Shown one piece after another: positions 15,236 to 35,552 of a stretch of 35,552 bases of DNA (position 1 is the first letter of the stretch; every line of letters starts with the position of its first letter). This stretch comes from a virus. Taxonomy: Duplodnaviria > Heunggongvirae > Uroviricota > Caudoviricetes. The position numbers were made by a program, and so were the translations under genes. The stretch is from IMG/VR virus record IMGVR_UViG_2645727510_000007; one strand, given 5' to 3'. Below the pieces are notes generated by a model. The model did no database searches. It was not told the DNA's origin and saw only the letters and a program-made list of their open reading frames with translations.

Positions 15236-15256
15236 TTTTAGTAAACAATTGGCATA

Positions 15257-15725: not shown

Positions 15726-15866
15726 TCATACTCCTGCTCCTGTCAGGGTTTTGGCGTAATTCTTCAGTATTCGGTAATCGGTCAAAACAGAACCGGGGAA
15801 ACGATATAAGCGCAGATGCCCCCAGCGGTGGCGAAGAAGTTCTGCCATATAAAACTCAAACATCAT
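15726..15866 (-). CDS. Small protein YlcG-like (46 aa)
   Basis: ATG overlaps the rusA stop (ATGA); encodes [46 protein letters not shown]; same position as ylcG in DLP12. Below the ORF-track length cutoff; read manually. Confidence 0.5.
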
Positions 15867-16675: not shown

Positions 16676-17130
16676 TACGCCTCCTGCTTGTCGCGGAGCA
16701 GCTGGAACTCGCAGCTCTGCGGAATAGTCAGGTGGCAGCCAATATTCACCGCCCAGGCTTCAACCTTACACAGGAAGACATACATCTCTCCGGTATCAAG
16801 ATCGGAGGTATGGCGTAACGACTGGATAGTGGTGATATCACCGGTTACGACATCAACCAGGTCTTTGGTTTCATAACCGAGATATGTGTGTTTGAGAGCA
16901 TCTTTTACCCAAGCTGGAGTGGCGAACGTTTTACCCCTGCTGATGAGGTATTCACTGATTTCGCTGTACCACATGTGGCTGAGTGCATTCTGGGAAAGAC
17001 TGCGTCTCTCGCGCCACGGTTTAAGCACCATGCGAAAGCATTTTCCGTCCTCCAGATAAGGCTGGATCTGCTGACCGATAGCGGTGAAGTTACCGCGATG
17101 CAATTTGATACCGTCTTGTGGGAGGTTCAC
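16675..17130 (-). CDS. NinB/Orf-family recombination mediator (YbcN-like)
   Basis: 151-aa ORF with the R-x-RSL-x-QN motif shared with lambda NinB (Orf); first gene of the nin block. Confidence 0.7.
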
Positions 17131-17555
17131 GCTTCACCTCCGCAGAGGTCAAACGCTAGATGCAAAGAATTGCAGGTGCATTTCTGCATCTGTGAAGGGA
17201 GAAGAGAGTTTGGATTGTATGTGCGCATAAACGTCCCCGTTTAGCGCAACCCCACCACCGGGTGTTCAGGCCGACAGTAACTATATTATTCCCTACTGAT
17301 TTTTGAAAATCAAAGGTCTTTATACGTCACACGAGAGCAAATATTTCCGAAGAAAAAACCTTTCGCCTTGAAAGGATAAAGAGTTCATTTCATAAATTGA
17401 AATATTAAACAAGAATATTGCAAAAAATGAAATTATTTACTAGAGAGTCTATCTAACTGATAATTATGAAGATTGTAAGCGGTGGCAATCACCCGCATAC
17501 ACATTGAACAGGATTTAATAAAAACGTCTTAAATTGTCCGTAAGGAATAGCACGA

Positions 17556-19058: not shown

Positions 19059-19306
19059 TTAATTTGTAGTGGCAATAAAGCAGGCATCGTTGAGAATATT
19101 TTGTCAGCGATGCTTACTTCTCTAACAAAAACGGTGATTACCAACGAACTAACGGACATCAGGTAATCATAAGACAAATGGAACGACTCTCCGGTGATTA
19201 GATCCCTGCAATAACAGTAATTTTCTACTAACTGAAAAATCTTTAACTGCCGCTCCTATTTCTAAGCTGACTGCTAGATTACATGGTGTGTTACCGATGA
19301 AAACCG

Positions 19307-19609
19307 TCACAGCAAGTTTAAGTTCATATCTCCATACACTGCCAACACTCGTTTCATCGCGGCACTCTGGCGACACTCCTTGAAAATCAGATTCGTGCTC
19401 ACCTTTCCTTCCCGTTCTTCCCTGGTAGCGAAGCGGTAATACACCGTTCGCCAGACCTTACCATCAATGACTAAGATTCCTGCCCGTGCCATTTTAACCG
19501 CAGCCTGATTTATACTGGTTACTGTTGCGCCTGTTACCGCAGCAACGTCCTGCGCACAGAAGCTCTTATGCGTCCCCAGGTAATGAATAATTGCCTCTTT
19601 GCCCGTCAT
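19307..19609 (-). CDS. ren: Ren protein (Rex-exclusion resistance) with divergent C-terminus
   Basis: MTGKEAIIHYLGTHKSFCAQDVAAVTGATVTSINQAAVKMARAG... is near-identical to lambda Ren for about 90 residues, then diverges (…AVYGDMNLNLL), marking a recombination junction near 19310-19330. Confidence 0.85.
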   Translation of the reverse strand: MTGKEAIIHYLGTHKSFCAQDVAAVTGATVTSINQAAVKMARAGILVIDGKVWRTVYYRFATREEREGKVSTNLIFKECRQSAAMKRVLAVYGDMNLNLL

Positions 19610-20307
19610 ACACTTGCTCCTTTCAGTCCGAACTTAGCTTTGATTTCTGCGATCTTCGCCAAAGCCTGTGCACGATTTAGAGGTCTACCGCCCATGACAG
19701 GAAGTTGTTTTACTGGTTCAGGTATCGCCTCACCACGGTTAATTCGCGCGGTCATACAGGTCAGCTCATCGGCAGCCTTACGCCGTAATTCCGCGTCAGT
19801 CAGCGCATTGGCCCGCATGTTCTGGTACAGGTTGGTAACCAGCCAGTAGTGCGCGTTTGATTTCCACGGATAAGACTCTGCATCCGGATACAGTCCACGC
19901 TTCCGGCAATACTCGTAAACCATATCAACCAGCTCGCTGGCGTTTGGCAGTCCGGCAATAACGGATGCTTCTTCACGGCACCAGGCAACAAACTGCCCGG
20001 GTGATGGCAGGAATGGTCGATTCTGCCGACGGGCTACGCGCATTCCAGCGTTAACCTGTTCCATCGTGGTGATCCCATTTTCCCGAAAAGCCAGAACCCA
20101 CTGGCGGCGGATTTCGTTCAGTTCATTCTGGTCACGGTTAGCCAGGCTCGCCGGGAAAGTTGCCAGTAACTGGCTGAACACACCGTTGATGATCTGCGCT
20201 ACCTGCTGTACCTGTGGCTTTTCGTCGTACTGTTCCGGCATGTTGTTGGCGATCCGACGCATCTGCTCACGGTCAAAGTTAACCATCTGTGCGGCGATGT
20301 TTTTCAT
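19606..20307 (-). CDS. P: Replication protein P (DnaB helicase loader)
   Basis: 233-aa ORF essentially identical in length and sequence to lambda P. Confidence 0.95.
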   Translation of the reverse strand: MKNIAAQMVNFDREQMRRIANNMPEQYDEKPQVQQVAQIINGVFSQLLATFPASLANRDQNELNEIRRQWVLAFRENGITTMEQVNAGMRVARRQNRPFLPSPGQFVAWCREEASVIAGLPNASELVDMVYEYCRKRGLYPDAESYPWKSNAHYWLVTNLYQNMRANALTDAELRRKAADELTCMTARINRGEAIPEPVKQLPVMGGRPLNRAQALAKIAEIKAKFGLKGASV

Positions 20308-21233
20308 AAATCCACCCCGTAAATCCAGTCAGTGTTTGTCAGGTCGAGTTTTGGTTTGCTGGCTATCATGCCTGCCTGTTGCTTGTTACGGTTGATTTCG
20401 AGCTGGGTCCACTTGTCGCGGAGTTTGGCCGGACTCAGCACGTTACCGGACCAGAAGTTGTCCTGGCATGCCCAGCGGAACAGTACACACATGTCGCGGT
20501 GGTTACGTCCGTCACGTTCACGCATCAGGCGGATATCGTTAGCCCACCCTGCAAAATTCGGTTTTCTGGCTGATGGCGCAATGGTCTTCACCATGTCAAA
20601 CATCCACTCTGCGGCGGTCAGGTCTTCTGCTGTCCCCCACTTGCTGCCGCTCTGAATTGCAGCATCCGGTTTCACCACAGGAAGATCGTTTTCTGGCTGG
20701 TCAGAGGATTCGACAGAATTCTCGGACGAAAAAGGTTTTATATTGTCTTTTGTTAGTTTGTCTTTTGTATTTACCTGATTCGGGTAAACGTCTTTACCTG
20801 ATTTGGGTAAAATTTTCTTACCTGATTCAGGTAAATTTACCTCTTTCAGGTAAACTTTATTTTTCTTACCTGATTCGGGTAATGTTAACCATTCACTGAT
20901 CACATTATTAATGCCGGTATTCCGCCCGCTCTGAATAAAAATCCCACGCTTTACCAGAACACTTTTTGCAGCAGAACACTTGTGCGGCAATATCCCGGTC
21001 AACTCGGAAAGTTGCTCGTTGCTCACCCAATCCAGTTTTTTATTAAAGCCATATGTTTTACGCATGACAGCCAGGAAGACCAGAAGCTGGTGCTGTGTTA
21101 ATCCGGCCAGCATTACAGCTTCCAGCAACTCATTTGCAATGCGCGTATAACCATCATCGAGATCTGCCACGCGCGGCTCCTTTTGTGCCACATCCGGCAC
21201 TGGAAAATTGAATATCTCAGCAGTGTTTGCCAT
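20304..21233 (-). CDS. O: Replication initiator O
   Basis: ORF 20304..21314; SD-preceded ATG at 21233 gives MANTAEIFNFPVPDVAQKEPRVADLDDGY..., lambda O-like; iteron-encoded repeats (LPESGKK) inside; C-terminus ...NTDWIYGVDL. Confidence 0.9.
   Translation of the reverse strand: MANTAEIFNFPVPDVAQKEPRVADLDDGYTRIANELLEAVMLAGLTQHQLLVFLAVMRKTYGFNKKLDWVSNEQLSELTGILPHKCSAAKSVLVKRGIFIQSGRNTGINNVISEWLTLPESGKKNKVYLKEVNLPESGKKILPKSGKDVYPNQVNTKDKLTKDNIKPFSSENSVESSDQPENDLPVVKPDAAIQSGSKWGTAEDLTAAEWMFDMVKTIAPSARKPNFAGWANDIRLMRERDGRNHRDMCVLFRWACQDNFWSGNVLSPAKLRDKWTQLEINRNKQQAGMIASKPKLDLTNTDWIYGVDL
20771..20883. repeat. ori: Origin of replication iterons inside O (five copies of about 18-bp ttacctgattcgggtaaa-like inverted-repeat units)
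   Basis: Five direct repeats at about 23-bp spacing, each itself palindromic (TTACC...GGTAA), as in lambda ori. Confidence 0.8.
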
Positions 21234-21310
21234 AATTCCTCCCGCAATGAGTGTTGCACCTGAAAGTCGGTTCTGTTCGCGCAGACCGGCTTTCGCCATT
21301 TCTGAACCTG

Positions 21311-21850
21311 TCATATTGCCCCCAGCATGGTGGTGACCATCGCCATCAGTGGACCAGCCAGATCCGGGTCCACACGAAACATCGACACAATGCCTTCACT
21401 CATCTCCTTCAGTTTCTGGTGGCGTGGTGCGTTGAGAATGACAGCCTGTTTTGCCTCACTGAGTTCCTTTTCCATTTCAGCCAGCCGAGCCATGTAGCTA
21501 TCCTGCTCAACCAGGTGGCCGCGATATTCCAGCGGTAGTACCGCCAGAATTGCCGGGGTCAGTTCACGCACGTTATTTCGGTATTTTTCAGAATCGAATT
21601 TGTTATCGAGGAAGCGGAACAGCTTCTGGCGTGCACGGCTGACATCATCAGGGAAATCGATGGTGCCGCCGCCCTGCTCCCGATACTCATTCACAATGAG
21701 TGTGGCAACGACATCCTGATTATCTTCAGCCGACCAGGCGCGGACGGCATCACGGATTTTTTCGTGGCCTGGCACCTGTTTTGTTTGAGAACGATTTATC
21801 ACCGCAGTCGGGCTAAATCCGCTAGTCTGTTGGTATGTAAGTTGTTGCAT
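21311..21850 (-). CDS. cII-position regulatory protein, YdaT-like (putative)
   Basis: 179-aa ORF with strong SD (aaggag) between cro-like and O; contains NEYREQGGG motif recalled from YdaT-family proteins. Family assignment is by memory only. Confidence 0.45.
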   Translation of the reverse strand: MQQLTYQQTSGFSPTAVINRSQTKQVPGHEKIRDAVRAWSAEDNQDVVATLIVNEYREQGGGTIDFPDDVSRARQKLFRFLDNKFDSEKYRNNVRELTPAILAVLPLEYRGHLVEQDSYMARLAEMEKELSEAKQAVILNAPRHQKLKEMSEGIVSMFRVDPDLAGPLMAMVTTMLGAI

Positions 21851-21919
21851 AATTGACTCCTTTAGTTTGAATTGACTGCTAAGTTGATTGCTTATTGTTA
21901 AAGAGCGTGAAATGGAAAT

Positions 21920-22150
21920 TTAAGCTGCGTTCTTTTCGGTATGTGGAAACAACTTCGGAAGATCCGGGCGAATCTGGTATGCCTTCACTATTCCACCAGT
22001 AGCCGTAACAATGCTGCCGACATGTTCAGGGGATACCTTTGCTTTGTTGTGAAGCCACTTATAGACGGCCTGCTGTGAAACTTCGCAGGCAGCGCCCAGT
22101 TTCTTTTGTGAACCAACGATATTGATCGCTGTTTTGATAGCTGGGTTCAT
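21920..22150 (-). CDS. cro: Cro-like HTH repressor (YdaS/DUF1019-type)
   Basis: 76-aa ORF divergent from cI across an operator region; HTH-like segment (QKKLGAACEVSQQAVYKWL). Confidence 0.75.
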   Translation of the reverse strand: MNPAIKTAINIVGSQKKLGAACEVSQQAVYKWLHNKAKVSPEHVGSIVTATGGIVKAYQIRPDLPKLFPHTEKNAA

Positions 22151-22254
22151 AACAACCTCCGTGGTTAATTTGAATCAAGATTAAAACTATGGTTGTTTTT
22201 AGCCAACAACCATTTTCGTTTGATGAAATAAAACCTTGGTTGTACATTTGGACT
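22151..22254. promoter_or_regulatory. Divergent immunity promoters and right operator (pR/pRM, OR)
   Basis: Intergenic region between cro-like and cI with a 9-bp perfect inverted repeat atggttgtt/aacaaccat (22189..22213) and two more AACAACC-like half-sites (22205-22225, 22236-22250). Confidence 0.65.
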
Positions 22255-22944
22255 ATGAAAACAACACTCTCAGAAAGACTTAAAGAAGCCAGATTAGCGC
22301 GAGGCCTTACACAAAAGGCGCTTGGGGATTTGGTCGGGGTTAGCCAAGCTGCTATTCAGAAAATCGAAACAGGGAAAGCTAACCAAACAACTAAAATCGT
22401 GGAGATCGCGAACGCTTTGGGTGTGCGCGCAGAATGGTTATCTTCTGGCGTTGGAAATATGTCAGACAGTACAGTGCAACCAATACAATCAACTGTCAGC
22501 CATTCCAAATACTTTAAGATTGACGTTCTTGATATAGAAGTGAGTGCCGGGCCGGGAGTCATCAACCGTGAGTTTGTAGAAGTTCTACGCTCGGTTGAGT
22601 ACTCGTTTGACGATGCTCGTCACATGTTCGATGGTAGGAAGGCAGAAAATATCCGCATCATTAACGTGCGTGGTGACAGCATGTCAGGAACGATCGAACC
22701 AGGTGATCTGCTGTTCGTTGATATCACGGTTAAATCTTTCGACGGTGATGGCATCTATGCGTTTCTGTACGACGACACCGCCCATGTAAAGCGCCTGCAA
22801 ATGATGAAGGATAAGCTGCTGGTTATCTCTGATAACAAGAGCTACTCACCGTGGGACCCGATCGAGAAAGACGAGATGAACCGGGTGTTCATCTTCGGTA
22901 AGGTTATTGGGAGCATGCCCCAGACGTACAGGAAACATGGATAA
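22255..22944 (+). CDS. cI: CI-type repressor (HTH_XRE N-terminal domain, LexA-like S24 self-cleaving C-terminal domain)
   Basis: From the Met at 22255: MKTTLSERLKEARLARGLTQKALGDLVGVSQAAIQKIETGK... (HTH); C-terminal domain has the catalytic Ser context (VRGDSMSGTIEPGDLLFVD) and Lys (HVKRL). Confidence 0.9.
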   Translation: MKTTLSERLKEARLARGLTQKALGDLVGVSQAAIQKIETGKANQTTKIVEIANALGVRAEWLSSGVGNMSDSTVQPIQSTVSHSKYFKIDVLDIEVSAGPGVINREFVEVLRSVEYSFDDARHMFDGRKAENIRIINVRGDSMSGTIEPGDLLFVDITVKSFDGDGIYAFLYDDTAHVKRLQMMKDKLLVISDNKSYSPWDPIEKDEMNRVFIFGKVIGSMPQTYRKHG

Positions 22945-23010
22945 TCAGTACTGTGCTGATGAGTCGTTTAGGGGATAGTAAATTTAATTAGAATTAGACG
23001 AGAGCGATTT

Positions 23011-23874
23011 ATGGATTGTGACGCTTTACAGGATATAAAAATCTCTCTTAGGTATGACGGAAAAGATGCTTTAAATCATGAAATAGATTTGAACTGCCTA
23101 GGAGAATCCCTAAAGGGTTTTTCTAAAGTTCTCTCAACAGCAGCTTCTTTCTCTGTTACACAAAAATATAGTAAATACATTAATTATCAGGAAGTTAAGG
23201 TTTACGCACGCGAAGCAAAAGCTAACTGCTTTACTCTTGAAGCAGTTCTTAACTTCGCCACTCAGAACCAGTTGTTCTCGGGGATCGCCGCAACTATACT
23301 TGGCGCAATACTACAATATATTTTTGCGAGAAATTCTAACAAGAAAGATGAAATGAAAGCTTTGCAGCAGTCACTTGAAAAGGCCATAGAGGCACTAGGA
23401 AACAAGGATGCTGGAACCATTGATAAGTTGATCTCTTTGATTGACCGAATGGCTGTAGAGCTTCGCCCCTCTGTAAGGCAGGCAGTATCACCTATTGGTA
23501 ATACTTGCGATCAGATAAGTGTTGCAACAAATGTTGACGGCTGCCTTCTAAAAGTTAACGAGAGAGATAAAGCTGAAATTGATAGGCTTGATGATGATGA
23601 AGTTCTCGGTCTTCGTGAGTATCGTGCTTTTCTTACAGAATTTGATGCACAAAATATGACAGCTAAAATAATTTTAGATGGTGATGACTCAAAAAAGAGA
23701 ATCACTGCTGAAATTAGCGATCCAGCTGCAGGAAAGAAGAATAACCCGTATATTAGAGCTCTTAGTGCATATATATCAACCAAAGGTGATCCATCTGCAG
23801 TATTCACTATAACCGCAAAGGCTACTGTTAAAAAAGGCCAGATAAACAGGTTATTTATTGTAGATGCGAAATGA
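23011..23874 (+). CDS. Uncharacterised protein at the rexAB position, co-transcribed with cI; candidate exclusion or abortive-infection factor
   Basis: 287-aa ORF 66 nt after cI with no terminator between, followed by a strong terminator; AT-rich versus flanking cI; one hydrophobic segment ([19 protein letters not shown]); no resemblance to RexA/RexB that I can recognise. Confidence 0.75.
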
Positions 23875-23878
23875 TTTC

Positions 23879-23905
23879 CCCGGCCGTCGTGCCGGGTTTT
23901 CTTTT
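23879..23905 (+). terminator. Rho-independent terminator ending the cI operon
   Basis: cccggc-cgtcgt-gccggg hairpin followed by ttttcttttg. Confidence 0.8.
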
Positions 23906-23999
23906 GCCTCCCCTCATCACACACCGTTCAAAAAACCACCACAACCCCGCTTCGGTTATCGCTATGCGATGCAAGTCACAAAATAAATCCATCCTAAAT

Positions 24000-24075
24000 A
24001 CAACCAGTTATATCTAAAACAACCAACAAAACAACTTTTGTTGTTGACGATAAAACAACTATAGTTTTAAATGAA
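24000..24075 (+). promoter_or_regulatory. Left operator and pL region (OL/pL)
   Basis: Repeated AACAAC[C/T]AT-type half-sites (aacaaccaacaaaacaac, ttttgttgttgac, aaaacaactatagtttt) matching the OR half-sites; TTGACG -35-like hexamer oriented toward the early-left genes. Confidence 0.6.
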
Positions 24076-24347
24076 TTCATCGCAACAACACAACGATACG
24101 GCAATCACCTGATTCACCGTTGCGATGACCGCTTAGATCCGCAGCTTGAATTTCAGCAGGCTCCGGGGAGTGCGAGGGGTGAAGCGGACGCGTGAACGTC
24201 GGTGTGACCAGCTGAAATCAACTCAACACTTCATACCTCAGTCGCTTCAACGAGGCGACTTAGTTATGACAACCGGCGGCCATCCACCGCCAGATACTGC
24301 GCAACCCCTTATTTGTTCAGCAGCCCAGCTTACGGGCAGGAGTTTTT

Positions 24348-24554
24348 ATGGTTCATCAACATTACGGAACGCAGACCGTTAATCGAGGTGCGGTCATGCC
24401 AGGAATGCTGGTCAAACACAAAGATGGTACCTGGACTGCATCAGCTAATTTACGCGGACGGCTTTATCTGCATCGCGGCATCGAGCGCACTTATACCCGT
24501 GATTTGCTCGTGGAAGTTTTTCTCGACGGACGCGGCAACGGTCTGAATCACTAA
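24348..24554 (+). CDS. Hypothetical 68-aa protein at the kil position upstream of gam
   Basis: SD (caggag) 7 nt upstream of ATG; no recognisable family from sequence. Confidence 0.5.
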   Translation: MVHQHYGTQTVNRGAVMPGMLVKHKDGTWTASANLRGRLYLHRGIERTYTRDLLVEVFLDGRGNGLNH

Positions 24555-24629
24555 TCCCCTTTCCTGTTTTCCGAATCAGCCTGGCATTCCGCGGGCGATT
24601 TTTTCACAGCCATTTTCAGGAGTTCAGCC

Positions 24630-24926
24630 ATGAACGCTTATTACATTCAGGATCGTCTTGAGGCTCAGAGCTGGGCGCGTCACTACCAGCAGATCGCCCG
24701 TGAAGAGAAAGAGGCAGAACTGGCAGACGACATGGAAAAAGGCCTGCCCCAGCACCTGTTTGAATCGCTATGCATCGATCATTTGCAACGCCACGGGGCC
24801 AGCAAAAAAGCCATTACCCGTGCGTTTGATGACGATGTTGAGTTTCAGGAGCGCATGGCAGAACACATCCGGTACATGGTTGAAACCATTGCTCACCACC
24901 AGGTTGATATTGATTCAGAGGTATAA
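24630..24926 (+). CDS. gam: Gam (RecBCD inhibitor), short GamS form only
   Basis: 98-aa [44 protein letters not shown]... near-identical to the C-terminal 98 aa of lambda Gam. Upstream in-frame sequence still encodes ...FRSSA but has no start codon. Confidence 0.9.
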
Positions 24927-24931
24927 AACGG

Positions 24932-25717
24932 ATGAGTACAGCACTCGCAACGCTGGCAGGGAAGCTGGCTGAACGTGTCGGCATGGATTCTGTCGACCCA
25001 CAGGAACTGATCACCACTCTTCGCCAGACGGCATTTAAAGGTGATGCCAGCGATGCGCAGTTCATCGCATTGCTGATCGTCGCCAACCAGTACGGCCTTA
25101 ATCCGTGGACGAAAGAAATTTACGCCTTCCCTGATAAGCAGAACGGCATCGTTCCGGTGGTGGGCGTTGATGGCTGGTCCCGCATCATCAATGAAAACCA
25201 GCAGTTTGATGGCATGGACTTTGAGCAGGACAATGAATCCTGCACATGCCGGATTTACCGCAAGGACCGTAATCATCCGATCTGCGTTACCGAATGGATG
25301 GATGAATGCCGCCGCGAACCATTCAAAACCCGCGAAGGCAGAGAAATCACGGGGCCGTGGCAGTCGCATCCCAAACGGATGTTACGGCATAAAGCCATGA
25401 TTCAGTGTGCCCGTCTGGCCTTCGGATTTGCTGGTATCTATGACAAGGATGAAGCCGAGCGCATTGTCGAAAATACCGCATACACTGCAGAACGTCAGCC
25501 GGAACGCGACATCACTCCGGTTAACGATGAAACCATGCAGGAGATTAACACTCTGCTGATAGCCCTGGATAAAACATGGGATGACGACTTATTGCCGCTC
25601 TGTTCCCAGATATTTCGCCGCGACATTCGCGCATCGTCAGAACTGACACAGGCCGAAGCAGTGAAAGCTCTTGGATTCCTGAAACAGAAAGCCACTGAGC
25701 AGAAGGTGGCAGCATGA
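24932..25717 (+). CDS. bet: Bet (Red-beta single-strand annealing protein)
   Basis: 261-aa ORF essentially identical in length and sequence to lambda Bet. Confidence 0.95.
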
Positions 25718-26394
25718 CACCGGACATTATCCTGCAGCGTACCGGGATCGACGTGAGAGCTGTCGAACAGGGGGATGATGCGTGGCACAAATTACGGCTC
25801 GGCGTCATCACCGCTTCAGAAGTTCACAACGTGATAGCAAAACCCCGCTCCGGAAAAAAGTGGCCTGACATGAAAATGTCCTACTTCCACACCCTGCTGG
25901 CTGAGGTTTGCACCGGTGTGGCTCCGGAAGTTAACGCTAAAGCGCTGGCCTGGGGAAAACAGTACGAGAACGACGCCAGAACCCTGTTTGAGTTCACTTC
26001 CGGCGTGAATGTTACTGAATCACCGATCATCTATCGCGACGAAAGTATGCGTACCGCCTGCTCTCCCGATGGTTTATGCAGTGACGGCAACGGCCTTGAA
26101 CTGAAATGCCCGTTTACCTCCCGGGATTTCATGAAGTTCCGGCTCGGTGGTTTCGAGGCCATAAAGTCAGCTTACATGGCCCAGGTGCAGTACAGCATGT
26201 GGGTGACGCGAAAAGATGCCTGGTACTTTGCCAACTATGACCCGCGTATGAAGCGTGAAGGACTGCATTATGTCGTGGTTGAGCGGGATGAAAAGTACAT
26301 GGCGAGTTTTGACGAGATGGTGCCGGAGTTCATCGAAAAAATGGACGAGGCACTGGCTGAAATTGGTTTTGTATTTGGGGAGCAATGGCGATGA
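25714..26394 (+). CDS. exo: Exo (lambda exonuclease, Red-alpha)
   Basis: 226-aa ORF matching lambda Exo; overlaps the bet stop. Confidence 0.95.
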
Positions 26395-26573
26395 CGCATC
26401 CTCACGATAATATCCGGGTAGGCGCGATCACTTTCATCTACTCCGTTACAAAGCGAGACTGGGTATTTCCCGGCCTTTCTGTTATCCAAAATCCACTGAA
26501 AGCCCAGCGGCTGGCTGAGGAGATAAATAATAAACGAGGGGCTGTATGCACAAAACATCTCCCGTTGAGTTAA
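26385..26573 (+). CDS. Hypothetical small protein
   Basis: 62-aa ORF, start overlapping the exo 3' end; part of a chain of overlapping small genes. Confidence 0.4.
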
Positions 26574-26737
26574 GGACGAGTATCGAGATGGCACATAGCC
26601 TCGCTCAAATTGGAGTCAGGTTTGTGCCAATACCAGTAGAAACAGACGAAGAATTTCATACGTTAGCCACATCCCTTTCACAAAAGCTGGAAATGATGGT
26701 GGCGAAAGCAGAAGCAGATGAGAGAGACCAGGTATGA
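26546..26737 (+). CDS. Hypothetical small protein
   Basis: 63-aa ORF; its stop overlaps the next ATG (ATGA). Confidence 0.45.
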   Translation: MHKTSPVELRTSIEMAHSLAQIGVRFVPIPVETDEEFHTLATSLSQKLEMMVAKAEADERDQV

Positions 26738-26817
26738 CAACCACTGAATGCATTTTTCTGGCAGCGGGCTTCATATTCTGTGTGCTTATGCTTGCCGACA
26801 TGGGACTTGTTCAATGA
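26734..26817 (+). CDS. Putative 27-aa hydrophobic membrane peptide (MTTTECIFLAAGFIFCVLMLADMGLVQ)
   Basis: ATG overlaps the upstream stop and its own stop overlaps the downstream ATG (ATGA both ends); single predicted TM helix. Read manually. Confidence 0.35.
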   Translation: MTTTECIFLAAGFIFCVLMLADMGLVQ

Positions 26818-27029
26818 CACCTCAGCAAGAAAACGCCCTTCGCAGTATTGCCCGTCAGGCTAATTATGAAATCAAAAAAGCCAGACAGCAGTTTCCGGAT
26901 AAAAACGTCGATGACATTTGCCGTAGCGTACTGAAAAAGCACCGCGAAACGGTAACGCTGATGGGATTCACACCGACTCATTTAAGCCTGGCGATCGGCA
27001 TGTTAAACGGCGTCTTTAAGGAACGGTGA
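26814..27029 (+). CDS. Hypothetical small protein
   Basis: ORF 26748..27029; ATG at 26814 (MTPQQENALRSIARQ...) is translationally coupled to the upstream peptide. Confidence 0.45.
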   Translation: MTPQQENALRSIARQANYEIKKARQQFPDKNVDDICRSVLKKHRETVTLMGFTPTHLSLAIGMLNGVFKER

Positions 27030-27051
27030 ACATGAAAAACAAAATCATCAT

Positions 27052-27072
27052 GGAGCTACAGGCTCCTTTTTT
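27052..27072 (+). terminator. Rho-independent terminator
   Basis: ggagc-tacag-gctcc hairpin followed by tttttt. Confidence 0.6.
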
Positions 27073-27127
27073 ATTGTTCGCATTCACCCTCAAGCGTATT
27101 AACCAACAATTCAGGGATTAATGGAAG

Positions 27128-27349
27128 ATGGCAGACATCATTGATTCAGCATCAGAAATTGAAGAATTACAGCGCAACACAGCAATAAAAATGCGCCGCC
27201 TGAACCACCAGGCTATATCTGCCACTCATTGTTGTGAGTGTGGCGATCCCATAGATGAGCGAAGACGCCTGGCCGTTCAGGGTTGTCGGACTTGTGCAAG
27301 TTGCCAGCAAGATCTGGAGCTTATCCGCAAACAAAGGGGGATTAAGTGA
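27128..27349 (+). CDS. DksA/TraR-family C4 zinc-finger protein
   Basis: 73-aa ORF with CxxC...CxxC pattern (CCECGDPIDERRRLAVQGCRTCASC); SD ggaag; lambda Orf73 is a TraR homologue at a similar position. Confidence 0.8.
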   Translation: MADIIDSASEIEELQRNTAIKMRRLNHQAISATHCCECGDPIDERRRLAVQGCRTCASCQQDLELIRKQRGIK

Positions 27350-27633
27350 TGGCTAACCTGCAACTTGCTGTTAAAAGTGAATACTTCGATGCCATGATTC
27401 GCGGAGAGAAAACGGAAGAGTATCGCCTTGTTAATGACTACTGGAAAAAGCGCCTCGTTAACCGCGAGTATGGCAGTCTGATCATCACGAAGGGGTATCC
27501 GAAGCGCGACGATTCCAGCCGCAGAATTGATGTTCCGTATGGCGGATATGAAATCAAGACAATCACACATCCGCACTTCGGCGATAAACCGGTAAAGGTA
27601 TACGCGATAAAGGTGAATATCGGCAATGAATAA
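27349..27633 (+). CDS. Hypothetical protein (possibly ASCH/PUA-like)
   Basis: ATG overlaps the TraR-like stop (TGATG); 94 aa; family guess is weak. Confidence 0.45.
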   Translation: MANLQLAVKSEYFDAMIRGEKTEEYRLVNDYWKKRLVNREYGSLIITKGYPKRDDSSRRIDVPYGGYEIKTITHPHFGDKPVKVYAIKVNIGNE

Positions 27634-27682
27634 CAATCCTCGCATTGGCGGGGATTTCTTTTATCTGAAAAGGACAGAATAC

Positions 27683-28426
27683 ATGATTAACAATATTGCA
27701 AATCAGTCTTCGTTTCCGGCTGCAACAATTGACAGCCAGATGCTGTTGAAAATGGTTAATGAGGCGCGGAGACTGTGAGGCGAAAAAGAAGTACGCAACA
27801 ACGACTTCATTGCACGCATCAAAGATGAGCTTGAGGGGGAGGGTTACGAAATTTTCGTAACCCCCATGGATAAGAAAAAAGGCGGAGCGGATCAGGTGGT
27901 TATAGTGATGACCTACAAGCAAGCCCTGCGCGTCGCCGCACGTGAGTCGAAAGCCGTCCGTCGTTCGCTGGTCGACAAACTTGAATCAATGCAACAGCAG
28001 TTGCAACAAAAAACGACCACGAAGAAATCACCGGATGGCCTTGAAGAATTCCGTAAGGCACGCGCATTGAAAATGACCGTCGACACAATGAAAGACCTCT
28101 TCGACTTCCTCCCTCACCTCGCACCGGAAGCTAAACAGGTCGTTGCCGCCAGCCTGATTAATCCCGTCGTCGGCTTTAGTGCAATCCCTCTTCCGGTCAT
28201 TGATGAACATCACTACTCTGCGTCGGAGGTTGGCACCATGCTTGGCATTTCAGCCAACAAGGTAGGGCGCATTGCCAACACCTACATGCTCAAAACAGAA
28301 AAGTACGGGAAGTGGTTCATCGACAAATCGGCGCACAGTGACAAGCAGGTCGAGACATTTCGCTACAACGAGGCGGGAGTGCACAAGATCGAGGAACTCA
28401 TCGAAGGAGAACGAAAGGCTGCATGA
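27683..28426 (+). pseudogene. Antirepressor-like gene split by an in-frame TGA at 27776..27778 (C-terminal 186-aa ORF 27866..28426 intact)
   Basis: ATG 27683 opens a frame encoding MINNIANQSSFPAATIDSQMLLKMVNEARRL, stop TGA, then the same frame continues GEKEVRNNDFIARIKDELEGEGYEIFVTPMDKKKGG... to 28426. Confidence 0.5.
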
Positions 28427-28505
28427 TTTTGACAAGATAGTTTTCCCCAAATCTGGGGGAAAAGACCGAATGGCGCGGCTTACAGCAAGATAAAGACCAC
28501 ATGAT

Positions 28506-28604
28506 TTGACAAATCCGCATTAACGGGGCTATATTCCGCTTCATGGTGCTGAACACACCTTGCAAAGCGGAAACCGCACCCGTCAGTCATGCGGCTTTTT
28601 TATG
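28506..28604 (+). ncRNA. Candidate small RNA or transcription attenuator: promoter, about 60-nt structured transcript, intrinsic terminator
   Basis: TTGACA (28506..28511), 18-nt spacer, TATATT (28530..28535); downstream alternative hairpins gcgg-aaa-ccgc (28567..28577) versus ccgca...tgcgg (28574..28594) followed by cttttttat. Confidence 0.35.
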
Positions 28605-28748
28605 TCCATTTCTCAGATATGGTCGGGTAGCGCGTATACCGAAAAACAACCGAAAGGTTAAGGATACGGGCCGACTTTGCACGGTGTTCAAGTACCTGAC
28701 CGCCCTGCTGAACACAGGGCTATCTGAACAAATGCAAAGGACATAAAA

Positions 28749-29372
28749 ATGACCAGTCAACTCATCCCCGTATTCAACGGCACTATCGCCAACGAAACAG
28801 CCCTACTCTGCAATGCCCGCGATCTGCATGCTTTTTTAGGCGTGAAAAAGGTGTTTGCGGCATGGATTACAAATCGCATTTCAGAATACGAATTCATTGA
28901 AAATCAAGACTATATTTTGCTTTCCAATTTGGGAAAGCAAACATCTGGTAGAGGCGGTCACAACCGCAAGGATTACCACCTCACCCTCGACACAGCCAAA
29001 GAGCTGGCAATGGTCGAGCGCAACGAAAAAGGCCGCCAGATACGCCGATACTTCATCGAGTGCGAAAAGAAACTTCGCAGCATGCAACCAGCGCAGCAAT
29101 TCACAGACGAGGAAATCATCCTCCTCTGCTACATGCAGGTACAGATGGAGAAAGCACAGGACATCAGCAAACGCCTGTATCCGATATTGAAGGAACTGAA
29201 CTCATCATACTCGAGCAAGCTGTATGACATCGCGTTTGAGACTTTCTACACGGTGACGAAAAACAGAGACGCACTGCTCAGGGAGGCGACACGACTTGAC
29301 CAGACAAGCGCCCTTTTCGAACGGGCAAGACCAATGCTGAAAAGCCTTCGGGCGAGACAATTCGAATTTTAA
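28749..29372 (+). CDS. AntA/AntB-type phage antirepressor
   Basis: 207-aa ORF with the AntA-like N-terminal motif (NARDLHAFLGVKKVFAAWITNRISEYEFIENQDYIL...GGHNRKDYHLTLDTAKELAMVERNEKGRQIRRYFIECEK). Confidence 0.8.
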   Translation: MTSQLIPVFNGTIANETALLCNARDLHAFLGVKKVFAAWITNRISEYEFIENQDYILLSNLGKQTSGRGGHNRKDYHLTLDTAKELAMVERNEKGRQIRRYFIECEKKLRSMQPAQQFTDEEIILLCYMQVQMEKAQDISKRLYPILKELNSSYSSKLYDIAFETFYTVTKNRDALLREATRLDQTSALFERARPMLKSLRARQFEF

Positions 29373-29377
29373 TCATC

Positions 29378-29403
29378 AAAGGAGCTTCGGCTCCTTTTTT
29401 GTT
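29378..29403 (+). terminator. Rho-independent terminator
   Basis: aaaggagc-ttcg-gctccttt hairpin followed by a T-run (ctcctttttt gttgg). Confidence 0.8.
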
Positions 29404-29456
29404 GGAGAAAATCAACCACTGCTCGCTCCCTTGCGAGTAATTGCGGAGACTTTGCG

Positions 29457-29675
29457 ATGTACTTGACACTTCAGGAGTGGAACGCACGCCAGCGACGCCC
29501 AAGAAGCCCTGAAACAGTTCGTCGATGGGTACGCGAGTGCAGGATATTCCCTCCTCCGGTTAAGGATGGAAGAGAGTATCTGTTCCACGAATCAGCGGTA
29601 AAGGTTGACTTAAATCGACCAGTAACAGGTAGCCTTTTGAAGAGGATCAGAAATGGGAAGAAGGCGAAGTCATGA
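29457..29675 (+). CDS. xis: Excisionase Xis
   Basis: 72-aa ORF MYLTLQEWNARQRRPRSPETVRRWVRECRIFPPPVKDGREYLFHESAVKVDLNRP... near-identical to lambda Xis; overlaps int as in lambda. Confidence 0.95.
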   Translation: MYLTLQEWNARQRRPRSPETVRRWVRECRIFPPPVKDGREYLFHESAVKVDLNRPVTGSLLKRIRNGKKAKS

Positions 29676-30726
29676 GCGCCGGGATTTACCCCCTAACCTT
29701 TATATAAGAAACAATGGATATTACTGCTACAGGGACCCAAGGACGGGTAAAGAGTTCGGATTAGGCAGAGACAGGAGGATAGCAATCACTGAAGCAATAC
29801 AGGCCAACATTGAGTTACTCTCAGACAGCGGACGGGAGTCACTGATAGACAGAATTAAAGGCGCTGACACAATCACTCTTCATACGTGGCTTGACCGATA
29901 TGAAACAATCCTCACCGAAAGGGGTATCAGACCGAAAACTCTACTCGACTACGCCAGCAAAATCAGGGCAATCCGAAGAAAATTGCCGGACAAACCGCTC
30001 ACTGACATATCAACGAAAGAGGTGGCTGCAATGCTAAACACCTACGTCGCAGAAGGTAAAGCAGCGTCCGCAAGAGTAATCAGGTCAACCCTTGTTGACG
30101 TTTTTCGTGAGGCAATAGCCGAGGGGCATGTGGCAACGAATCCGGTAACAGCAACCCGCGCAGCAAAGTCAGAAGTAAGGCGCTCAAGGCTGACAGCTAA
30201 TGAGTATGTCGCGATTTACCATGCAGCCGAACATCTCCCAATCTGGCTGAGGCTGGCAATGGATTTGGCTGTCGTTACAGGGCAGAGAGTAGGCGATTTA
30301 TGCAGAATGAAATGGTCAGACATAAACGACAACCATCTTCACATTGAGCAGGGTAAAACAGGGGCTAAGCTCGCCATTCCGCTGACGCTAACGATTGACG
30401 CGCTCAATATCTCATTGGCTGATACACTACAGAAATGCAGGGAGGCCAGCGGCAGTGAAACAATAATTGCATCAACGCATCACGAACCGCTTTCCCCGAA
30501 AACAGTATCTAAGTATTTTACAAAGGCGAGAAATGCATCTGGACTCTCATTTGATGGAGACCCGCCAACATTCCATGAACTGCGTAGCCTGTCGGCGAGG
30601 CTATACCGGAATCAGATTGGCGATAAGTTTGCTCAACGTCTTCTCGGGCATAAATCAGATTCAATGGCGGCGCGGTATAGGGACAGCCGAGGGAGAGAAT
30701 GGGACAAAATTGAAATCAATAAATGA
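29653..30726 (+). CDS. int: Tyrosine integrase Int (lambda family)
   Basis: 357-aa ORF; N-terminal arm-binding domain identical to lambda Int (MGRRRSHERRDLPPNLYIRNNGYYCYRDPRTGKEFGLGRDRRIAITEAIQANIEL), catalytic region conserved (...HELRSLSARLY...LLGHKSD...) with scattered substitutions. Confidence 0.95.
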   Translation: MGRRRSHERRDLPPNLYIRNNGYYCYRDPRTGKEFGLGRDRRIAITEAIQANIELLSDSGRESLIDRIKGADTITLHTWLDRYETILTERGIRPKTLLDYASKIRAIRRKLPDKPLTDISTKEVAAMLNTYVAEGKAASARVIRSTLVDVFREAIAEGHVATNPVTATRAAKSEVRRSRLTANEYVAIYHAAEHLPIWLRLAMDLAVVTGQRVGDLCRMKWSDINDNHLHIEQGKTGAKLAIPLTLTIDALNISLADTLQKCREASGSETIIASTHHEPLSPKTVSKYFTKARNASGLSFDGDPPTFHELRSLSARLYRNQIGDKFAQRLLGHKSDSMAARYRDSRGREWDKIEINK

Positions 30727-30810
30727 TTTTATTTTGATTAATAATGACCCATGCAATGTAATTTATTGATAATTAAAGAGATTTCAAATATGCAACTTAC
30801 CTTATTTAAG
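30727..30810 (+). other. attL: attL: P'-arm-type Int sites (30727..30755) and putative core / phage-host junction (about 30794..30810)
   Basis: Sequence after the int stop aligns without gaps to the lambda attP P' arm (tgattttattttga.. aataatgaccc vs TGATTTTATTTTGACTGATAGTGACC; ttgataa shared). Where lambda has core TTAGTATAAAAAAGC this has ttaccttatttaagg. Confidence 0.5.
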
Positions 30811-30840
30811 GCCCCTTCCTCGGGAGGGGCTTTCCCGTTT
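30811..30840 (+). terminator. Terminator-like GC hairpin on the host side of attL
   Basis: gccccttc-ctcg-gggagggg c hairpin followed by tttcccgttt. Confidence 0.4.
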
Positions 30841-30998
30841 CAGCATCCGGCTGAAATCTGCGGCTTACCTCCTTTCGCCCTGTATGTAGTCTATCGCTAA
30901 CGCGTAGATAAAATAGTTTCCTGTGTTATTACTGGATGCGTGCTCGCAAATGTGCCCGCCATTCAGACGATTCCCGATAGTGTTTCATAATTCCTCCA

Positions 30999-31019
30999 TT
31001 TTTCTCCCTTATTGGCTGG
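30999..31019 (+). promoter_or_regulatory. BaeR-box-like response-regulator site in the mdtA promoter
   Basis: tttttctcccttattggctgg matches the recalled BaeR consensus (TTTTTCTCCnnnATTGGC), about 50 bp upstream of mdtA. Confidence 0.6.
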
Positions 31020-31069
31020 CTACACTAGTATCATTCCGCGAAACGTTTCAGGAAGAGAAACTCTTAACG

Positions 31070-32317
31070 ATGAAAGGCAGTTATAAATCCCGTTGGGTAA
31101 TCGTAATCGTGGTGGTTATCGCCGCCATCGCCGCATTCTGGTTCTGGCAAGGCCGCAATGACTCCCAGAGTGCAGCCCCAGGGGCGACGAAACAAGCGCA
31201 GCAATCGCCAGCGGGTGGTCGCCGTGGTATGCGTTCCGGCCCATTAGCCCCGGTTCAGGCGGCGACCGCCGTAGAACAGGCAGTTCCGCGTTACCTCACC
31301 GGGCTTGGCACCATTACCGCCGCTAATACTGTTACGGTGCGCAGCCGCGTGGACGGTCAACTGATGGCGTTACATTTCCAGGAAGGCCAGCAGGTCAAAG
31401 CAGGCGATTTACTGGCAGAAATTGACCCCAGCCAGTTCAAAGTTGCATTAGCACAAGCCCAGGGCCAACTGGCAAAAGATAAAGCCACGCTTGCTAACGC
31501 CCGCCGTGATCTGGCGCGTTATCAGCAACTGGCAAAAACCAATCTCGTCTCCCGTCAGGAGCTGGATGCCCAACAGGCGCTGGTCAGTGAAACCGAAGGC
31601 ACCATTAAGGCTGATGAAGCAAGCGTCGCCAGCGCGCAGCTGCAACTCGACTGGAGCCGCATCACCGCACCAGTCGATGGTCGCGTTGGTCTCAAGCAGG
31701 TTGATGTTGGTAACCAAATCTCCAGTGGTGATACCACCGGAATTGTGGTGATCACCCAGACGCATCCTATCGATTTAGTCTTTACCCTGCCGGAAAGCGA
31801 TATCGCTACTGTAGTGCAGGCGCAAAAAGCCGGAAAACCGCTGGTGGTAGAAGCCTGGGATCGCACCAATTCGAAGAAATTAAGTGAAGGCACGCTGTTA
31901 AGCCTCGATAACCAAATCGATGCCACAACCGGTACGATTAAAGTGAAAGCACGCTTTAATAATCAGGATGATGCGCTGTTTCCCAATCAGTTTGTTAACG
32001 CGCGCATGTTAGTCGACACCGAACAAAACGCCGTAGTGATCCCAACAGCCGCCCTGCAAATGGGCAATGAAGGCCATTTTGTCTGGGTGCTGAATAGCGA
32101 AAACAAGGTCAGCAAACATCTGGTGACGCCGGGCATTCAGGACAGTCAGAAAGTGGTGATCCGTGCAGGTATTTCTGCGGGCGATCGCGTGGTGACAGAC
32201 GGCATTGATCGCCTGACCGAAGGGGCGAAAGTGGAAGTGGTGGAAGCCCAGAGCGCCACCACTCCGGAAGAGAAAGCCACCAGCCGCGAATACGCGAAAA
32301 AAGGAGCACGCTCCTGA
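31070..32317 (+). CDS. mdtA: Multidrug efflux RND membrane-fusion protein MdtA
   Basis: From the Met at 31070: [31 protein letters not shown]... 415 aa, membrane-fusion family; followed immediately by mdtB. Confidence 0.95.
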
Positions 32318-35300
32318 TGCAGGTGTTACCCCCGAGCAGCACAGGCGGCCCGTCGCGCCTTTTTATTATGCGTCCTGTCGCCACCACGCTGCTGATGGTG
32401 GCGATCTTACTCGCCGGGATTATCGGTTATCGCGCCCTGCCCGTTTCGGCGCTGCCGGAAGTGGACTATCCGACCATTCAGGTGGTCACGCTCTACCCAG
32501 GTGCCAGCCCGGATGTCATGACCTCTGCCGTTACCGCGCCGCTAGAACGCCAGTTCGGGCAGATGTCTGGCCTGAAACAGATGTCGTCGCAAAGTTCCGG
32601 CGGTGCGTCAGTTATCACTTTGCAGTTCCAGCTAACATTACCGCTCGATGTCGCCGAGCAGGAAGTGCAGGCCGCGATTAACGCTGCGACCAACTTGTTG
32701 CCGAGCGATCTGCCTAACCCGCCGGTTTACAGCAAAGTGAACCCGGCAGATCCGCCGATCATGACGCTCGCCGTCACCTCAACCGCCATGCCGATGACGC
32801 AAGTGGAAGATATGGTGGAAACCCGCGTCGCGCAGAAAATCTCGCAGATTTCCGGTGTCGGACTGGTGACGCTTTCCGGCGGTCAGCGTCCGGCTGTTCG
32901 CGTCAAACTTAACGCTCAGGCGATTGCCGCCCTCGGCCTGACCAGCGAAACCGTGCGCACCGCCATTACCGGCGCTAACGTTAACTCGGCAAAAGGTAGC
33001 CTCGACGGCCCTTCCCGTGCGGTTACGCTTTCCGCTAACGACCAGATGCAATCCGCCGAAGAGTATCGCCAGCTAATCATCGCCTACCAGAACGGCGCGC
33101 CGATTCGTCTTGGCGATGTCGCAACCGTAGAGCAAGGTGCAGAAAACAGCTGGCTTGGCGCATGGGCGAACAAAGAACAGGCCATTGTGATGAATGTTCA
33201 GCGCCAGCCCGGTGCTAACATTATCTCCACCGCCGACAGCATCCGGCAGATGCTGCCACAGCTCACCGAGAGTCTGCCGAAATCGGTGAAGGTAACAGTG
33301 CTTTCCGATCGCACCACCAATATCCGCGCATCGGTCAACGATACCCAGTTTGAATTGATGATGGCTATCGCGCTGGTAGTCATGATTATCTACCTGTTTT
33401 TGCGCAATATTCCGGCGACCATCATTCCCGGCTTCGCAGTGCCGCTGTCGTTAATCGGCACCTTCGCGGTCATGGTGTTTCTCGATTTTTCAATCAATAA
33501 CCTGACGCTGATGGCGTTAACTATCGCCACCGGGTTCGTGGTCGATGACGCCATCGTGGTGATCGAAAATATTTCCCGCTATATCGAAAAAGGCGAAAAA
33601 CCGTTGGCGGCGGCGCTCAAGGGCGCAGGTGAAATCGGCTTTACCATTATCTCGCTGACCTTCTCGCTGATTGCGGTGTTGATCCCACTGCTGTTTATGG
33701 GCGATATCGTCGGGCGACTGTTCCGCGAATTTGCTATTACCCTGGCGGTAGCGATTTTGATCTCAGCGGTGGTGTCGCTGACCCTGACACCGATGATGTG
33801 CGCGCGGATGCTCAGCCAGGAGTCGTTGCGTAAACAGAACCGCTTCTCCCGTGCCTCGGAAAAAATGTTCGACAGGATAATCGCCGCCTATGGTCGTGGA
33901 CTGGCGAAAGTGCTGAATCATCCGTGGCTGACCTTAAGCGTGGCACTCAGCACGCTGCTGCTTAGCGTGCTGCTGTGGGTGTTCATTCCGAAAGGTTTCT
34001 TCCCGGTACAGGACAACGGCATTATTCAGGGCACTTTGCAGGCACCGCAATCCAGCTCCTTTGCCAATATGGCCCAGCGGCAACGCCAGGTCGCGGACGT
34101 GATTTTGCAGGATCCGGCAGTGCAAAGTCTGACCTCATTTGTTGGCGTTGATGGCACTAACCCGTCGCTGAACAGTGCGCGTTTGCAGATCAACCTCAAA
34201 CCGCTGGATGAACGTGATGATCGGGTGCAAAAAGTCATCGCCCGTCTGCAAACGGCGGTGGATAAAGTGCCGGGCGTCGATCTCTTCCTGCAACCAACGC
34301 AGGACCTGACCATCGATACTCAGGTCAGCCGCACCCAGTACCAGTTTACCTTGCAGGCCACCTCACTGGATGCGCTCAGTACCTGGGTGCCAGAGTTGAT
34401 GGAAAAACTCCAGCAACTGCCACAGCTTTCTGATGTCTCCAGCGACTGGCAGGACAAAGGGCTGGTGGCGTATGTCAATGTTGATCGCGACAGCGCCAGC
34501 CGTCTGGGGATCAGCATGGCGGATGTCGATAACGCCCTGTACAACGCGTTTGGTCAGCGGCTGATTTCCACTATTTATACTCAGGCTAACCAGTATCGCG
34601 TGGTGCTGGAACACAACACCGAAAATACCCCAGGCCTCGCGGCGCTGGATACCATTCGCCTGACCAGCAGCGACGGTGGCGTGGTGCCGCTAAGCTCAAT
34701 TGCCAAAATTGAGCAGCGTTTTGCGCCGCTCTCCATCAACCATCTGGATCAGTTCCCGGTAACGACCATCTCCTTTAACGTGCCGGATAACTATTCGCTG
34801 GGTGATGCGGTGCAGGCGATTATGGACACCGAGAAGACGCTGAATCTGCCGGTGGATATCACCACGCAATTCCAGGGCAGCACCCTCGCCTTCCAGTCGG
34901 CGCTGGGCAGCACTGTCTGGCTGATTGTCGCGGCGGTGGTGGCGATGTATATCGTGCTCGGCATTCTGTACGAGAGCTTTATTCACCCGATCACCATTCT
35001 CTCGACGCTACCCACCGCAGGGGTCGGCGCACTGCTGGCATTAATGATTGCCGGAAGTGAGCTGGATGTGATTGCGATTATCGGCATTATTTTGCTGATC
35101 GGTATCGTGAAGAAGAACGCCATCATGATGATCGACTTCGCGCTGGCTGCTGAGCGCGAGCAAGGCATGTCGCCGCGCGATGCCATCTACCAGGCTTGTC
35201 TGTTGCGTTTTCGTCCGATCCTGATGACCACCCTGGCGGCTCTGCTTGGCGCGCTGCCGCTGATGTTGAGTACCGGGGTCGGCGCGGAACTGCGTCGTCC

Positions 35301-35439
35301 GTTAGGTATCGGCATGGTCGGCGGTCTGATTGTCAGCCAGGTGCTGACGCTGTTCACCACGCCGGTGATTTATCTGCTGTTCGACCGCCTGGCATTGTGG
35401 ACCAAAAGTCGCTTTGCTCGCCATGAAGAGGAGGCGTAA
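32317..35439 (+). CDS. mdtB: Multidrug efflux RND permease MdtB
   Basis: 1040-aa ORF with RND transporter architecture (12 TM segments, two large periplasmic loops); start overlaps the mdtA stop. Confidence 0.95.
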
Positions 35440-35552
35440 GTGAAGTTTTTTGCCCTCTTCATTTACCGCCCGGTGGCGACGATTTTACTGTCGGTCGCCA
35501 TTACCCTCTGCGGCATACTGGGCTTCCGTATGCTGCCGGTCGCCCCGCTGCC
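35440..35552 (+). CDS. mdtC: Multidrug efflux RND permease MdtC, N-terminal fragment (continues beyond window)
   Basis: GTG directly after the mdtB stop opens (M)[37 protein letters not shown], an RND N-terminus; window ends inside the gene. Confidence 0.85.

Follow-up and report, generated by a model that had tools for sequence, protein, structure and literature searches.

The 35,552-nt window analysed here (IMG/VR virus record IMGVR_UViG_2645727510_000007, taken at its full length) is Escherichia coli DNA, and its positions 24548-35552 are 99.7% identical to strain ECO2947 (accession number NZ_CP046259.1). Within it the integrase gene int ends at 30726 and mdtA starts at 31070, and positions 30727-31069 are therefore the exact int-mdtA spacer. 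Judged by its sequence, this spacer carries the int-proximal attachment site (attL) of a lambdoid prophage, in which a P' arm and a core are followed by host DNA. The best explanation of the observations as a whole, and one that we hold to be very probable, is that the prophage is of the HK022 type, that its attL lies in the 3' end of a SibB antitoxin RNA gene of the Sib/Ibs array upstream of mdtA, and that it was targeted there through a swapped 7-bp overlap.

The phage would have entered the chromosome by site-specific recombination mediated by Int and IHF, using an HK022-type integrase. Its attP, reading CAACTTA-CCTTATT-AAAGGAT, would keep the half-sites of HK022 and carry the swapped overlap, and this swap would divert it from torS-torT to the sequence ACCCTTT-CCTTATT-TAAGGCC in the Sib/Ibs array, because strand exchange in the lambda family requires identical overlaps in the two partner sites (PMC4846993).

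The attL junction and its partner sites

The P' arm at 30727-30799 (73 nt) aligned without gaps to the attP of HK022 (62/73 positions identical, 85%) and to that of lambda (49/73). The initial annotation had described a base-for-base alignment with lambda attP; the register is indeed gapless, but identity is confined to those 49 positions. Taken as a whole, from the first arm-type site to the base before the core, the P' arm occupies 30720-30792. Three putative arm-type Int sites, assigned by homology to lambda, lie at 30720-30729 (P'3), 30731-30740 (P'2) and 30741-30750 (P'1), and each agrees with lambda at 8/10 positions and with HK022 at 9/10 (our own count on the alignment). An IHF-type H' site is found on the minus strand at 30759-30771 (TATCAATAAATTA, fitting WATCAANNNNTTR), and the arm-type sites and the IHF site are in register with the core.

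The core consists of the phage-derived C' core-type Int half-site CAACTTA (30793-30799), identical to C' of both HK022 and lambda, the 7-bp overlap CCTTATT in which crossover takes place (30800-30806), and the host-derived B core-type half-site TAAGGCC (30807-30813), the position of which was taken from the 7-7-7 register of the HK022 core. The B half-site has a (T/A)AAG motif in common with the half-sites at torS and yfaT and with C of HK022, and it overlaps the left arm of a terminator stem described below. At 30797-30811 the window reads TTACCTTATTTAAGG where lambda has TTAGTATAAAAAAGC, a difference that the initial annotation had already noticed. A 19-mer across the core has a single occurrence in the window (shuffled sequences gave an expectation of 0), and every megablast match to an HK022-like phage breaks off at 30799, where C' ends.

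The position of the crossover and the anatomy of the junction were established by alignment with 5,426 complete E. coli genomes, about 5,300 of which lack the prophage. These empty-site genomes match the window only from 30796/30800 rightwards. In strain A19 the empty site (attB), in the last Sib unit, reads CATCATGACCCTTT-CCTTATT-TAAGGCCCC (core ACCCTTT-CCTTATT-TAAGGCC), and attL in the window reads GCAACTTA-CCTTATT-TAAGGCCCC (core CAACTTA-CCTTATT-TAAGGCC). The opposite end of the prophage, attR, was located about 50 kb from attL in ECO2947, the att region of which is 100% identical to that of the window, and reads GACCCTTT-CCTTATT-AAAGGATGAC (core ACCCTTT-CCTTATT-AAAGGAT, with the overlap at L005:15621-15627). 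Empty sites cease to match attR at the end of CCTTATT. This 7-mer is the sole block common to attL, attR and attB, and the attP core was therefore reconstructed in the form given above. The four half-sites are imperfect inverted repeats that all contain CTT/AAG, and CCTTATT is in register with TTCACCT, the overlap of HK022. At attR of ECO2947 the P arm aligns to the P arms of HK022 and lambda, with the arm-type sites conserved along with the tI hairpin, which folds at -24 kcal/mol (z = -5). The attL that the initial annotation had placed beside int is thereby confirmed, and the comparison with empty sites that it had called for puts the junction exactly at the core it had predicted.

HK022-type integrases and their overlaps

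The genes beside the junction, both on the plus strand, are xis (29457-29675), encoding a 72-aa excisionase (PHROG excisionase match, E 8.5e-23), and int (29653-30726), encoding a 357-aa heterobivalent tyrosine integrase assigned by alignment to HK022 and lambda Int. Xis is identical to HK022 Xis at 71/72 positions and to lambda Xis at 70/72. Int, which has three domains and the complete catalytic set R212, K235, H308, R311, H333 and Y342, is 94.7% identical to HK022 Int and 75.6% identical to lambda Int. Against lambda, identity is 89% in the arm-binding domain (residues 1-64), 68% in the core-binding domain (65-169) and 75% in the catalytic domain, and residues 1-55 are the same in both. The initial annotation had correctly placed the differences from lambda mainly outside the arm-binding domain and had read them as lambda arm recognition with altered core specificity. 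This description is accurate relative to lambda, but it is the long-known pattern of HK022. The integrase carries the HK022 residues D99, P282, K283, K287, R319 and R329. Positions 282, 283, 287 and 319 (P, K, K and R) reportedly distinguish HK022 from lambda core recognition, in 1995 work by Dorgai et al. The changes N99D and H329R, which give D99 and R329, have also been named as HK022 specificity determinants (PMC10863862).

The best phage matches to the window were HK022, mEp235, mEp506, Gally, H19J and several Stx1a phages, at 94-96% DNA identity. The attP core read from the HK022 genome is CAACTTA-TTCACCT-AAAGGAT, and the same core was read in mEp235, Gally and H19J; none of the sequenced HK022-like phages extends its match past 30799. 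Alignment establishes that the C' and C half-sites of the reconstructed attP are identical to those of HK022, and only the 7-bp overlap differs. Compared with the strict attHK022 core on the standard strand, ATCCTTT-AGGTGAA-TAAGTTG, the half-sites are unchanged and the overlap is AATAAGG. In both, the distance from the int stop codon to the junction is 73 bp (PMC6814406 for HK022), and the layout of the P and P' arms and the tI hairpin are conserved. The host sides differ, the attB of HK022 lying in the torS-torT intergenic region with half-sites AACCTTT and AAAGTGC, whereas here the flank is the Sib/Ibs array and mdtA, with half-sites ACCCTTT and TAAGGCC. HK022 also abuts the torS promoter region, whereas here a terminator stands between the prophage and the neighbouring operon.

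Lambda resembles the window prophage in its heterobivalent Int, the arm-binding domain of which is nearly the same, in having arm-type sites, IHF site and C' in the same register, and in a tI/sib hairpin beyond the P arm. It differs in the overlap, in part of the C half-site (AAAGCTG in lambda, AAAGGAT here) and in the specificity positions of Int, which here carry HK022-type residues. In lambda, saf mutants and engineered att variants are said to show that an altered attP overlap alone redirects integration (Weisberg et al. in 1983, Bauer et al. in 1985 and Rutkai et al. in 2006). Those variants were made in the laboratory, whereas the swap seen here is natural and fixed in a prophage lineage present in about 1.6% of complete E. 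coli genomes, in which the overlap alone would appear to have retargeted the phage.

An HK022-type int, with an identity of 90% or more across the 3' end of int and the P' arm, was present in about 400 of the complete genomes, and the sites occupied were counted with junction-specific queries. HK022's own site at torS (K-12 attB AACCTTT-TTCACCT-AAAGTGC) accounted for 192 genomes and yfaT (attL CAACTTC-CATGTCA-TAAGTTG) for 177. The Sib/mdtA site was occupied in 85-86 genomes by attL and in 91 by attR (~1.6%), and a further site between rpnC and panC, with the same CCTTATT attP, in 12. The Sib-site junctions in these 86-91 genomes, from varied hosts, are 93-100% identical. Alignment also established the near-identity of the Ints across sites: identity among them is 95-99.7%, and they do not group according to site. 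The Int of a yfaT-site prophage is 99.7% identical to a torS-site Int, differing only at the last residues, and that of a panC-site prophage, a sibling with the CCTTATT attP, is 99.2% identical to both. Near-identical Ints at different sites support the overlap, and not the protein, as the determinant of the site.

The panC-site prophage carries nleA, and its attR reads CCTTATT-AAAGGATGAC; the sequence CCTTATT-AAAGGAT at this end implies the same attP as in the sib-type prophage. A distinct overlap, ACCTTAT, was considered for this prophage and is ruled out by the same attR. The cores at panC are attB GGTAATTA-A-CCTTATT-TAAGTTA (L026:146-175), attL CAACTTA-A-CCTTATT-TAAGTTA (L013:1993-2015) and attR GGTAATTA-CCTTATT-AAAGGAT (L029:18628-18660), and relative to a simple exchange one A has shifted from attR to attL. 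We read panC as a probable secondary attachment site of the CCTTATT phage. More speculatively, the pattern would fit a secondary site with an 8-bp spacing of the half-sites and a heteroduplex resolved by replication. In the sib- and panC-site prophages nleA, which encodes a type III effector, lies directly inside attR, past the P arm and tI hairpin (L005:16233-17474 in ECO2947; L029:19227-20597 at panC), in the position of the lambda b region.

At yfaT (O111:H8, L010:1994-2014; K-12 yfaT, L020 ~945-975) the last ~38 codons of the gene give way to ones encoded by the phage, and yfaT gains a stop codon that overlaps that of int; the CATGTCA overlap at this site was read from attL. In 321 additional genomes there is an int with 80-90% identity over its 3' end (85% among the matches listed). 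Among those listed matches, which are from O157:H7 and O55:H7 genomes, similarity ends at 30748, inside the P' arm, and this group is a related but distinct integrase/att lineage.

The Sib/Ibs array as target

Upstream of mdtA, empty genomes (A19 and K-12) have two or three Sib/Ibs type I toxin-antitoxin units in tandem. The Rfam model SIB_RNA (RF00113) scored 141-150 bits in A19 and in a K-12-type strain, with the model ending at the overlap, and RefSeq annotates ibs coding sequences there, so that a full Sib RNA with an antisense ibs reading frame stands at the insertion point of the empty sites. The window itself gave no full SIB_RNA match. Only the last 36 nt of Sib are present (30800-30835, plus strand; the K-12 sibB 3' end maps to 30835), the orphaned 3' end of the mdtA-proximal SibB-type RNA, including the terminator hairpin at 30808-30833 (-19.3 kcal/mol). 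The initial annotation had suggested that a GC hairpin here may be a displaced host terminator. It is a host terminator, that of the last SibB-type RNA, and it has been orphaned, but it has not been displaced relative to mdtA. A simple terminator scan misses both this hairpin and the phage tI hairpin, and both were assessed by folding instead.

In the K-12 annotation 29 nt separate the overlap from the 3' end of SibB, and the terminator hairpin follows directly upon the overlap. In SibC, target-recognition domain 2 occupies the stretch just ahead of the terminator and pairs with the region where ibs translation is initiated (PMC2943612). Read on the minus strand, the overlap falls in the ribosome-binding region of ibs, the start codon of which is 8 nt further on. 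The target is also the 5' region of the antisense toxin gene, and one insertion therefore splits both type I toxin-antitoxin partners. Prophages are known to integrate at the 3' ends of tRNA and small RNA genes such as ryeB and ryeE (Bobay et al. 2013, PMC3603311), and the present site resembles these in its crossover, which falls where a structured small RNA gene has its 3' end, beside a terminator hairpin. It differs in that the RNA's 3' end is not restored by phage sequence, and Sib loses its terminator.

With the ibs start codon 8 nt past the overlap, everything upstream of the ibs ribosome-binding site stays on the attL side. The geometry would place the orphaned ibs 5' untranslated region and presumed promoter on the minus strand at 30807-30930, the outer limit being approximate. 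A consensus scan for the ibs promoter on the attL side gave nothing convincing, and an alignment of five K-12 ibs upstream regions revealed no clear -10 or -35. By the same geometry, at attR the ibs reading frame would retain its Shine-Dalgarno sequence and lose all that lies upstream of it, and at attL the ibs upstream region would now point into the P' arm, antisense to int. Removal of the promoter would be expected to silence the split ibs copy. The truncated Sib at attR, which keeps its promoter and body, would lack a terminator and probably run about 170-190 nt to the phage tI hairpin.

The sequence CCTTATT is present only in the sibA and sibB types of copy and is absent from sibC, sibD and sibE. 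Insertions into different Sib copies of the array have the same junction. In Z1323CEC0014 and D1 the prophage occupies a non-terminal Sib copy and is separated from mdtA by one whole Sib/Ibs unit, and the use of such copies indicates that the phage recognises the Sib core and not the neighbourhood of mdtA. The sibB of K-12 has the left half-site and overlap found in A19 but ends TATGGCC (CCTTATT-TATGGCC in MG1655, L018:1147-1282), whereas TAAGGCC is the reading in the window and in most strains. The single changed base falls in the terminator stem and presumed B half-site and might make K-12 a poorer target.

Alternative explanations and implications

A different account would have an integrase with lambda arm recognition evolve a new core-binding specificity, so that a change in the protein targets the site. 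We consider this improbable. Relative to lambda it matches the domain pattern described above, and the window Int does have private changes in the core-binding domain, R141 and V142. However, its differences from lambda are the known HK022 set, and a new Int specificity as the cause of the site, which the initial annotation had favoured, is contradicted by phage half-sites that are both identical to those of HK022, with only the overlap changed. Moreover, Ints that are 99.2-99.7% identical to each other serve three different overlaps, and the sibling prophage with the same CCTTATT attP lacks both R141 and V142. We give equally little credence to the junction being a dead scar of a decayed prophage with non-functional att sites. 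In favour of a scar, the window prophage is a mosaic relative to ECO2947, the ECO2947 prophage contains an IS3 element and pseudogenes, and no free phage with this attP is known. In AMSHJX01 (NZ_CP030939.1) the sib-site attL, near 1,772,800, and attR, near 3,323,500, are ~1.55 Mb apart, a spacing that points to an extensive rearrangement of the chromosome, one endpoint of which would lie within the prophage. Against a scar, neither int nor xis is damaged and no catalytic residue is missing, CCTTATT is unaltered at either end, and the junctions are closely conserved across the varied hosts. Insertions in different Sib copies and at the panC secondary site, with the same attP, argue indirectly for repeated and fairly recent activity.

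The third alternative concerns the neighbouring operon, and we regard it as unlikely, though marginally more plausible than the other two. Integration could rewire mdtABCD-baeSR expression if a promoter in the P' arm fired outwards or if transcription of int continued past its end. HK022 acts on torS in this way, its 73-bp P' arm holding a transcription start that drives the adjacent gene (PMC6814406). The P' arm here has the same length and the resemblance to HK022 given above, and int and mdtA are co-oriented. A promoter-like ATGACC-18-GATAAT lies at 30744-30773 on the plus strand, but at chance level (3 matches against 1.4 expected). The strong Sib terminator, however, still stands between int and mdtA immediately after the junction. 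The stretch that begins with the overlap and ends with the mdtA start codon, BaeR box included, is identical to that of the empty-site strain A19 at 274/274 bp, and where a non-terminal Sib copy is used the prophage lies ~330 bp farther from mdtA, so closeness to mdtA is not conserved. The BaeR box was found at 30999-31016 on the plus strand (TTTTTCTCCCTTATTGGC, 17/18 positions of the Nishino consensus TTTTTCTCCATDATTGGC as quoted in PMC3799227), upstream of mdtA as the initial annotation had indicated, along with the end of int at 30726. That annotation had also suggested a perturbation of mdtABC regulation, to be weighed by upstream sequence and expression with and without the prophage; the upstream sequences prove to be identical. 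The identity and the retained terminator leave altered regulation of mdtA, and of multidrug efflux, without support in the sequence, and mdtA is probably insulated from the prophage by the Sib terminator.

Targeting of an HK022-type phage through its overlap accounts best for these data, and several points weigh against it. The window Int has six private substitutions (T73, T78, R141, V142, A170 and H194), and the host B half-site (GGCCTTA on the standard strand) agrees with HK022 B (GCACTTT) at 4/7 positions. The substitutions could contribute to the choice of site and the B match is weak, so that the overlap may not suffice by itself. The window stops inside the prophage and contains no P arm; the attR and attP sequences used here are those of ECO2947 and other genomes that share its attL exactly, and not those of the genome to which the window belongs. 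When TATGCAACTTACCTTATT and ATRCAACTTACCTTATTWAAGG were sought in IMG/VR viral contigs, the scans yielded no free phage with this attP core, so that the activity of this attP is judged from prophage ends. Two GTDB matches to the CCTTATT core in other species, on two related Burkholderiales contigs from metagenome-assembled genomes, lie inside a protein-coding region without similarity to att arms and were judged to be due to chance.

The rest of the window was examined for context. Downstream of the junction, mdtA (31070-32317, plus strand, ATG at 31070; annotated by RefSeq in the identical ECO2947 region) reads in the same direction as xis and int and is followed by mdtB (32317-35439). The window prophage is collinear with that of ECO2947 only at 24548-35552 and in parts of 1347-13355. 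The 11 kb at 13400-24500, which include a gene annotated by RefSeq as the porin OmpC, have 100% matches only in CD45 and PS1Thumoskin9, far from the sib-site attL of those strains. The early-left region is unusually short, with a CI-like repressor gene (22189-22944), a gene for a 287-aa product (23011-23874, PHROG 5147) and kil (24348-24554). An N-type antiterminator, which would bear on read-through from pL, was sought from the repressor gene to kil (22189-24554), and none was recognised. The sole match in the window at the Rfam gathering score was sRNA-Xcc1 (69.3 bits, E 9.7e-11) at 28621-28709 on the plus strand. It belongs to the early-left region of the prophage, where an anti-repressor Ant-like gene (28749-29372) follows it closely.

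The type of attachment site is ordinary and of textbook form; it is the target that appears to be undescribed. The natural HK022-type attP with a swapped overlap, the use of the Sib/Ibs array as attB and the service of several overlaps by near-identical Ints all appear to be new. Searches of the searchable literature for prophages together with mdtA, ibsB, sibB or yegL returned nothing on Sib/Ibs as a phage target. A table entry in PMC7437938 places a prophage at 'yegL' in O145:H25 Shiga toxin-producing E. coli, and a list in PMC3603311 includes yfaT as a disrupted gene. Annotators can now give an attB defined to the base in place of 'prophage next to mdtA/yegL'.

It is possible, although doubtful, that HK022-type Ints form a naturally 'programmable' system in which new sites arise by overlap swaps, one enzyme (95-99.7% identical) serving at least three overlaps, TTCACCT at torS, CATGTCA at yfaT and CCTTATT at sibB and panC, and that the CCTTATT lineage disarms an Ibs copy and may create new RNAs. 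If so, a fusion of Sib to the P arm ending at tI, or an RNA from the orphan ibs promoter antisense to int, could couple toxin-antitoxin control to prophage maintenance. More broadly, the Sib/Ibs array emerges as a prophage target in ~1.6% of complete E. coli genomes, and some of the prophages concerned, such as that of ECO2947, carry type III effector genes, nleA among them. They would provide a natural example of a temperate phage that gained a new site by keeping its integrase and binding sites and changing the 7-bp crossover, a route predicted by the laboratory saf mutants and engineered att sites and for which the searchable literature offered no documented natural lineage.

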